Source of the DNA: Verrucomicrobiales bacterium
GTDB lineage: Bacteria; Verrucomicrobiota; Verrucomicrobiia; Verrucomicrobiales; V1-33
Direction of reading: 5' to 3'
Assembly: GCA_038210825.1 (NCBI GenBank)
Contig: JBBQWG010000011.1
Coordinates: forward strand, 29,877 to 93,876
DNA: 64,000 bases
Position 1 is the first letter of the stretch. Every line of letters starts with the position of its first letter. The notes under the pieces are model-generated. The model had not been told where the DNA came from, searched no databases, and was given only the letters and a program-made list of their open reading frames with translations. The position numbers and the translations under genes are program-made. Below, one piece after another: positions 53,649 to 53,697 of this stretch.

Positions 53649-53697
53649 GGTCAGCGGTCAGCGGTCAGCGGTCAGCGGTCAGCGGTCAGCGGTCAGT
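53649..53697. repeat. Tandem heptanucleotide array (GGTCAGC)x6 plus one degenerate unit (GGTCAGT)
   Basis: Direct reading: ggtcagc at 53649, 53656, 53663, 53670, 53677 and 53684, then ggtcagt at 53691. The array ends 10 nt from the thrS ATG (53638). It is the reverse complement of the ACCGCTG unit of the 62927-63269 array. Confidence 0.95.

Follow-up and report, generated by a model that had tools for sequence, protein, structure and literature searches.

Tandem arrays of 7-nucleotide (nt) units are known from several bacterial groups. Cyanobacterial heptamers of the short tandemly repeated repetitive (STRR) type were reportedly described by Mazel in 1990, and two of their units, CCCCAGT and TTGGTCA, are one base off units encountered in the present analysis (CCCCTGT and CTGACCA). 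The locus treated here lies in DNA of a Verrucomicrobiales bacterium (assembly GCA_038210825.1, contig JBBQWG010000011.1, positions 29,877 to 93,876), a stretch of 64,000 nt called the window below, in which a heptamer array ends 10 nt before the start codon of thrS, the gene of threonine--tRNA ligase. The array is probably a slippage-driven heptanucleotide microsatellite of the class of STRR sequences and long simple sequence repeats (LSSR), which would lie in the transcribed thrS leader and be tolerated there, its effect being probably just a longer leader.

Heptanucleotides are the most abundant class of LSSR (Mrazek, Guo & Shah, 2007, cited from the summary in PMC4679880). Among the heptamer families, TAACTGA repeats are found in marine Beggiatoaceae, cyanobacteria and Bacteroidetes (MacGregor, 2015; PMC4679880). 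Of 170 sets, 147 point toward a start codon, most without a ribosome-binding site (RBS), and the reverse orientation is the rule inside open reading frames (ORFs), since the forward strand stops every frame; a role in translation initiation was proposed, not demonstrated, and no transfer mechanism was found (MacGregor, 2015; PMC4679880). The GGGAATC and GGGGA(C/T)T repeats of Xanthomonas and Nostoc, here called GGGNATC, carry the G-rich strand as antisense strand within 50 bp before an ORF or as sense strand within 50 bp after a stop codon, neighbor genes of all functional classes and are mostly transcribed (Rehm et al., 2015; PMC4692102). Their length at the same locus varies extensively between related genomes, and they form G-quadruplexes (G4) in vitro (PMC4692102). 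For heptamer repeats that precede recF and recO in Nostoc, effects on reporter expression are described in a preprint (10.1101/2022.06.06.494920).

Other short tandem repeats resemble the thrS array in being located between a regulatory region and a start codon. In the hmw promoters of Haemophilus influenzae, the copy number of 7-bp repeats changes transcription. The TTTTGAT heptads of Vibrio cholerae ctxAB are promoter repeats whose copy number changes transcription (10.1101/2021.05.14.444153), and the AGAT repeats of Moraxella catarrhalis uspA2, located in the promoter/5' untranslated region (5' UTR), act in a copy-number-dependent manner (described in PMC4679880). These are surface or virulence genes with a demonstrated effect on expression and/or a bound regulator, whereas the gene downstream of the present array encodes an essential aminoacyl-tRNA synthetase, a housekeeping gene and not a surface, virulence or restriction-modification gene.

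The array and the elements next to it are as follows.
51683..53638, minus strand: thrS, threonine--tRNA ligase, 651 amino acids (TIGR00418, E=1e-199)
53639..53648, minus strand: 10-nt spacer UCUUUCCCCU between array and AUG, conserved as YUUUCCCCU in close relatives
53649..53697, minus strand: heptanucleotide array (direct reading, Tandem Repeats Finder (TRF), shuffle test)

On the plus strand of the window, positions 53649-53697 read (GGTCAGC)x6+GGTCAGT, which in thrS sense is ACUGACC + (GCUGACC)x6, i.e., (CUGACCG)n, and the 3' end of the leader is ...CCCA-CUGACCG(x6)-CUGACC-UCUUUCCCCU-AUG. This agrees in composition, coordinates and spacing to the ATG with a prior reading made from the letters alone (the sequence-only reading). 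TRF gives period 7, 6.9 copies, 100% matches and a score of 96. Allowing up to two mismatches, the window has 27 occurrences of the 14-mer GGTCAGCGGTCAGC compared with 0.9 +/- 0.8 in shuffles, and all 27 are confined to 53649-53697 (plus strand) or 63063-63272 (minus strand). The sense strand of the array has TGA in all three frames, every 21 nt, and the antisense frames are all open. The array is non-coding, being placed between the thrS start at 53638 and the end of the upstream gene at 53904, with sense stops in all frames. The start codon is set by the N-terminus M(T/N)DRKTLEE, which is common to all relatives, and together with the TIGR00418 match this confirms the earlier assignment of thrS and of its start at 53638 on the minus strand. 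The best metagenomic matches of the window ThrS are 95% identical, its named relatives are Verrucomicrobiaceae, and a look-up of the exact protein gave no recorded entry.

Every property of heptanucleotide LSSR/STRR-type microsatellites that was tested was found at the thrS array: head-to-tail 7-nt copies above chance, a non-coding site, copy-number variation at the orthologous locus, which was compared between species only, and over-representation of period 7 among the tandem repeats of the lineage. As in LSSR, for which slippage is the proposed origin, the tandem 7-nt units are mostly intergenic and differ in number and sequence from one close relative to another. Among the 39 arrays with at least four copies in 1.15 Mb of sequence around thrS, 16 have period 7, more than any other period, in agreement with the abundance of heptanucleotides among LSSR; apart from the window, these loci had not been chosen for repeats. 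The period-7 arrays checked against gene calls are all but one intergenic and close to gene ends. The array is thus a further member of a catalogued kind of heptamer repeat; a literature search for the exact unit in its six registers returned only an unrelated cattle paper, and neither the CTGACCG unit nor its presence in Verrucomicrobia, such as the Verrucomicrobiaceae-like host, was found in the searchable literature.

The orthologous leaders of close relatives and of 80 further thrS loci from metagenomes were compared (loci are designated by L numbers). Sister species whose ThrS is 87-95% identical have no unit, 2, 3 or about 8 degenerate ones at the orthologous spot, where the window has 7:
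L002, ThrS 94% identical: three units, CUGACCA CUGACCG CUGACCA, 5' of the spacer
L267 (complete genome GCA_942492905.1), 87%: two units, CUGACCG CUGACCC
L205, 95%: about 8 degenerate CCCUGAC units (TRF)
L266, L204 and L001, 91-94%: scattered remnants of units
L203, 95%: assembly gap at the orthologous point
L003, 94%: the same 5' boundary, CUGCCCACUGA, then UAACUUA CAACUAA UAACCAA
L004, L005, L268 and L269, 88%: unrelated AT-richer leaders with no repeat

More distant relatives have no repeat 5' of the thrS spacer. The window allele is the longest and purest at this site. Because unit content differs among orthologous leaders, the thrS site is, judged from these alignments, a variable-number repeat locus, with what would be the signature of a recent slippage-type expansion rather than of a conserved operator. 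The interpretation given in the sequence-only reading is supported in part. The alternative posed there, a cis-acting role rather than random slippage, was a false choice: the array behaves as a slippage-prone microsatellite, the count among sister species being 0, 2, 3, 7 or about 8 (the last degenerate). In L203, the scaffold gap (an N run at 7071-7081) lies just upstream of the heptamer tract of the relatives, consistent with an assembly break in a repeat. In L003 (9660-9700), the identical boundary CTGCCCACTGA is followed by TAACTTA CAACTAA TAACCAA, which are TAACTGA-type units.

Upstream of the array, the leader has two further elements.
53731..53780, minus strand: pyrimidine-rich leader block CCUCCCCGCUUUCCUUUUCCCACUUCCUGCCCUUCGUGAUCUUCUGUUCC, conserved beside thrS in relatives
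53790..53806, minus strand: small hairpin UCCAUC-CGCCC-GAUGGA, directly 5' of the block (direct reading)

The block is located 90-140 nt before the AUG and is kept in the window, L002, L203, L204, L205 and L267. Every relative has a different gene ahead of thrS, while the block stays with thrS, and the distance from block to start changes with repeat content. The block is presumed to be a promoter-proximal or 5' UTR part. Because this conserved block travels with thrS despite changing neighbors, the thrS control region would reach beyond the array, and the array itself is inferred to be transcribed. As the distance from block to AUG varies, no promoter of fixed spacing can straddle the array, and the 10 nt left downstream of it leave no room for one. 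In the relatives, a hairpin occupies the same place 5' of the block with a different sequence in each. Both flanking genes of thrS differ in nearly every relative, which places thrS between synteny breakpoints.

The thrS leader is of a type common in this organism. By our own gene calls, a Shine-Dalgarno-like motif at -20..-3 is present in 1 of the 39 called window genes, and among 160 genes with good scores from the window and the closest relatives, TTCCC occurs within 60 nt upstream of the start in 36 sense but 8 antisense leaders and CCCCT in 27 sense but 3 antisense leaders, other pentamers behaving similarly. Leaders in these genomes are C/U-rich and G-poor on the sense strand; examples in the window end in ...CCUUCC-AUG and ...CAUCCCC-AUG. 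The spacer UCUUUCCCCU has no purine run, and the earlier observation that no Shine-Dalgarno-like stretch is found between array and ATG is correct for these 10 nt, but a missing Shine-Dalgarno sequence is the norm for the lineage and not special to thrS. An array with its C-rich strand in the mRNA merely fits the local leader type.

The leader is also unusually unstructured. Its 182 nt have a minimum free energy of -11.4 kcal/mol compared with -19.0 +/- 3.5 for shuffles (z=+2.2), 199 of the 200 shuffles folding at least as well, and the sense strand of the array folds weakly (-3.7 kcal/mol for 48 nt, compared with -8.0 for the complement). Rfam gave no match over the whole window at the gathering threshold, nor over the leader at E<=1, and a tRNA search found no tRNAs. 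A scan of 53500-54000 for promoter and terminator consensus sequences found no sigma-70-like promoter and no terminator by which the thrS transcription start site could be placed. As far as the sequence goes, a T-box or tRNA-mimic operator at thrS is ruled out, as no such hairpins are present and the leader is unstructured; this bears out the earlier statement that no such RNA is visible. The likeness to the Escherichia coli thrS operator, a mimic of the tRNA-Thr anticodon arm, and to the Firmicute T-box is limited to position in the 5' leader of thrS, whereas the leader here is unstructured, is without Rfam match and has no conserved structured RNA. Nothing supports a specific tie of the repeat to thrS autoregulation, and no new mechanism is suggested. 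A GTG-initiated upstream ORF of 19 codons (53686-53745, minus strand) begins in the conserved block and ends at the first in-frame TGA of the array, and similar frames are found in L002 and L205. It is probably meaningless and was rejected as evidence, since no frame that enters the array can run through it without a stop.

Position and orientation of the unit were surveyed in every array of at least three units among the matches listed, with the window and L002 excluded, sense being the sense strand of the adjacent gene; all census counts below have this scope. Genes were called by a codon-usage-based caller written for the census and checked only against the called genes of L001-L003, for which strand and stop were right; several small genes were missed, and starts and distances are approximate. 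Within 30 nt of start codons, 13 arrays in genomes have CTGACCG as sense and none has CGGTCAG (binomial p=2e-4), and in viral contigs the numbers are 12 and 1; within 50 nt the ratio in genomes is 17 to 3. None of these start-adjacent arrays is hidden in an N-terminal ORF extension, except that of L109. Within 30 nt of stop codons, 18 arrays in genomes have CTGACCG and 31 CGGTCAG as sense (49 in total), and within 50 nt the G-richer strand is sense in 38 and the C-rich strand in 21. In the 18 stop-adjacent arrays with CTGACCG as sense, the ORF ends at the first TGA of the array. Other arrays are inside genes, about 30 in all, with the open strand as sense in 15 of 16 cases in genomes and again in 15 of 16 in viral contigs; they encode SGQRSAVSGQ-like linkers, and only that of L109 is N-terminal, possibly owing to a mis-called start.

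The claim that orientation is non-random was right and holds generally. The same census qualifies it: the orientation bias at starts is real, but most arrays of the unit elsewhere lie at gene 3' ends or inside genes and the 5' position is a minority one among the matches listed. The sequence-only reading had also argued that two unrelated genes sharing the repeat point to a cis-acting role, which does not follow, as such sharing is expected anyway for a dispersed repeat family with most of its arrays stop-adjacent or in-gene.

Compared with the TAACTGA repeats, the thrS array is alike in the CTGA core, in the stops in every forward frame with the open reverse strand as the one inside ORFs, in pointing toward a start codon and ending a few nt before it (a 10-nt gap) without an RBS or purine run, and in that both precede unrelated as well as essential genes; the thrS relative L003 even has TAACTGA-like units at the orthologous position. 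It differs in that the unit is the GC-rich CCGCTGA, which shares only the CTGA core, in having 7 copies where TAACTGA sets have 2-6, and in that stop-adjacent arrays of the CTGACCG unit outnumber start-adjacent ones in the pooled census (49 versus 13 among the matches listed). TAACTGA sets are many per genome and mostly at starts; the 64-kb window has two arrays. With the GGGNATC repeats, the array shares the rule of position and strand at gene ends, its G-richer strand being antisense before an ORF. Those repeats have tracts of three to four G, form quadruplexes and prefer four units, whereas the thrS array has only GG, with a G4Hunter-type score of 0.45.

The unit is widespread. An exact (CTGACCG)x3 is present in at least 119 genome stretches of many phyla, with one genome counted per species; the matches listed include Verrucomicrobia, Planctomycetes, Acidobacteria, Chloroflexi, Myxococcota, Proteobacteria (Burkholderia, Pseudoalteromonas), Actinobacteria and many filamentous cyanobacteria, and exact (CTGACCG)n arrays are also listed from Moorena, Okeania, Oscillatoria and Burkholderia. 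Viral contigs with the unit number 42, whereas three control heptamers of matched composition gave 1, 5 and 12, and the one with 12 also contains CTGA. With the low-complexity filter of BLAST, which can mask such repeats, a 42-nt query of the repeat had no match in E. coli genomes. CTGA/TCAG is the commonest tetramer in the other period-7 arrays of the fetched loci (37 of 139), although these loci are not independent of the query.

In the process that we consider probable, 7-nt units would be gained and lost by slipped-strand mispairing at replication, as the copy-number differences among sister species suggest, and the window lineage would recently have expanded a seed of two to three units to seven perfect ones. 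The array would most probably be transcribed within a long C/U-rich, G-poor, unstructured 5' leader lacking a Shine-Dalgarno sequence, the ordinary type of this organism. Beside a start codon, only the orientation with the C-rich strand in the mRNA would survive, with its stop in every frame and its weak folding. Orientation would then be a compatibility filter common to all such repeats, not a thrS-specific operator, and the bias can indeed be a filter of tolerance, because the leaders of the lineage are all C/U-rich and G-poor on the sense strand. The effect on thrS is likely to be small, each unit lengthening an unstructured leader by 7 nt. The thrS array might have a regulatory role, which would then be one common to repeats of this class.

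Several observations weigh against this account. The CTGACCG unit is 3.5-42 times commoner than the composition-matched controls, which plain slippage does not explain. In-frame arrays of 21-27 nt in conserved genes are hard to build unit by unit, because stages with 7 or 14 nt added would shift the frame. Some phage contigs carry 3-unit arrays 2-22 nt before several different genes, and the strictness of orientation near starts looks more like use than tolerance. At thrS itself, at least two CTGACC-type units beside YUUUCCCCU-AUG persist down to 87% ThrS identity, which could reflect selective retention rather than repeated neutral birth and decay.

In the main alternative, (CUGACCG)n in the mRNA would serve as a single-stranded standby or landing platform, or would be bound by an RNA-binding protein such as ribosomal protein S1, a cold-shock protein or one like CsrA; it would drive or tune initiation independent of a Shine-Dalgarno sequence, with copy number setting the level. 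Arrays ending 0-30 nt from starts in a strictly biased orientation (13:0 among the matches listed; 12:1 in viral contigs), several genes per phage contig preceded by 3-unit arrays, units kept beside the thrS AUG in sister species, the unstructured leader and the sequence specificity of the unit all agree with such a platform, and a similar function was proposed for TAACTGA (PMC4679880), with the reporter effects at Nostoc recF/recO as a further parallel (10.1101/2022.06.06.494920). We nevertheless regard it as unlikely, as copy number is 0-8 in close relatives and some of them (L004, L268) have no repeat, most arrays elsewhere among the matches listed are at 3' ends or inside genes, repeat-less C/U-rich leaders serve other window genes, and none of the heptamer families is known to have a binding protein. 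A role at the level of DNA, through tandem binding of a transcription factor or nucleoid protein or through a variable promoter spacer as in the ctxAB and hmw models, would be very unlikely: tandem heptads of variable copy number upstream of a gene do have a precedent in V. cholerae ctxAB (10.1101/2021.05.14.444153), but here the array ends 10 nt from the AUG with no room for a downstream promoter, no -35/-10-like pair occurs anywhere in 53500-54000, and thrS is an essential housekeeping gene and not a contingency locus. The strand rule and the presence of the unit after stops and in ORFs also fit a filter at the RNA or coding level better.

The recurrence of an identical unit in many phyla and in phages (42 viral contigs versus 1, 5 and 12 for controls) might instead reflect active, sequence-specific placement, by one-step templated insertion, gene conversion from other arrays, or a repeat-adding or mobile activity. 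The in-frame insertions of 27 nt and larger that encode SGQRSAV in conserved GH95 and PheT proteins, the roughly 30 in-gene arrays, and the different heptamer family that follows the same thrS boundary in L003 would be explained thereby. This is quite improbable for the window: no transposase, reverse transcriptase or other candidate gene is located beside its arrays, neither target-site duplications nor defined element ends are visible, the graded 2, 3 and 7 units at thrS are what slippage predicts, and for TAACTGA no transfer mechanism was found either (MacGregor, 2015; PMC4679880). Non-B DNA, i.e., a G-quadruplex or i-motif acting on transcription, is hardly to be expected at all. The GGGNATC heptamers form G4 in vitro and share the orientation rule (PMC4692102), and the first part (62927-63060) of a second array in the window has a G4Hunter-type score of -2.17. 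At thrS, however, there are only GG runs, and both strands of the array fold weakly. The usual G4Hunter threshold is about 1.2, and a G-quadruplex was rejected for the thrS array on its score of 0.45. A bolder combination would hold that CTGA-core heptamers (CCGCTGA, TAACTGA, TAGCTGA, CCCCTGA) form one cross-phylum family, actively seeded in one step (in-frame in genes, and in phages), that their stop-bearing orientation provides modules for Shine-Dalgarno-independent initiation or insulation, and that the thrS array is a working, copy-number-tunable part; we consider it decidedly doubtful.

The thrS array itself is nothing out of the ordinary for its repeat class, which entered the catalogues in 1990/2007 and is still without established function. 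Its value, as one more data point together with a census across genomes, lies in the same 7-nt unit being found from Verrucomicrobia to cyanobacteria, actinobacteria and phages, in the strict orientation beside starts, and in short arrays that are inserted in frame into conserved proteins; these three points are what deserves following. Should such repeats prove to work as leaders or to be made by an active process, they would bear on translation start without a Shine-Dalgarno sequence in bacteria and on the spread of microsatellites.

Among the in-gene arrays, the 27-nt array in the GH95 fucosidase gene of L126 is, compared with PDB 7kmq and 4ufc, a clean 9-residue insertion in a conserved loop, and the PheT protein of L084 has the same kind of in-frame insertion. 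In-gene arrays of 3-5 units are present in L126 (3898-3924), L084 (6843-6876), L089, L106, L117, L120, L141, L183, L188, L197 and L201, and in the viral contigs L208, L211, L215, L218, L220-L223, L231, L244 and L247. For L110 and L141, labelled 'MAG: Klebsiella pneumoniae', the apparent clean insertion compared with enterobacterial orthologues was dropped, as the label is doubtful; in blastn, a 0.8-kb stretch of L141 matched none of 5,426 complete E. coli genomes.

The arrays of phage contigs are exemplified by L209 (1953-1978, 7255-7275) and L226 (1978-1998, 6147-6167, 11444-11469), and others are in L225, L210, L206 and L230. An opposite (TCAGCNN)n array often lies just upstream in such contigs, and the pair could form a long imperfect hairpin. 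A hairpin of this type was rejected for thrS, as there is no partner array around 53649-53697; an inverted-repeat search around the array gave only three short, distant pairs of 10-11 nt. Perfect arrays of 9-18 units with the G-richer strand as sense are found in L130 (4162-4227), L202 (1831-1960) and L158 (Pseudoalteromonas); they are located in 3' UTRs, 0 nt from a stop codon and ahead of a hairpin that resembles a terminator.

The window contains one other array of this kind.
62926..63275, plus strand: second array, 50 heptamers (TRF, direct reading)

It runs in one unbroken register without insertion or deletion and consists of 17 unit variants with the consensus G-N-C-C-S-C-N. CTGACCG is on its plus strand, and its C-rich strand is the sense strand of the next ORF, which starts at 63326 (plus strand) and runs off the window end, so that both arrays are indeed co-oriented with their downstream genes, as the sequence-only reading had claimed. 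The unit said there to dominate the second array is present, but GACCGCT is only the plurality (14 of the 50 in-register units), and the ORF at 63326, taken for a GH13 gene, has only weak matches to GlgE (E about 0.003) and no Pfam or NCBIfam match. The first third of the array (62927-63060), with its score of -2.17, is G-quadruplex-prone on the minus strand. Variants such as GCCCCCG, GTCCCCT, GCCCCCT, GACCCCT, GACCGCT and GACCGCC, among others, are arranged in blocks, whose order is like a record of successive mutations and expansions of units. Nearly the same mosaic (GCCCCCT, CCCCTGA, CTGACCA, CTGACCG) is found in a different phylum, in a Planctomycetaceae metagenome-assembled genome (L145, 2464-2561), where 1 nt separates the end of the array from the stop codon of a gene encoded on the other strand.

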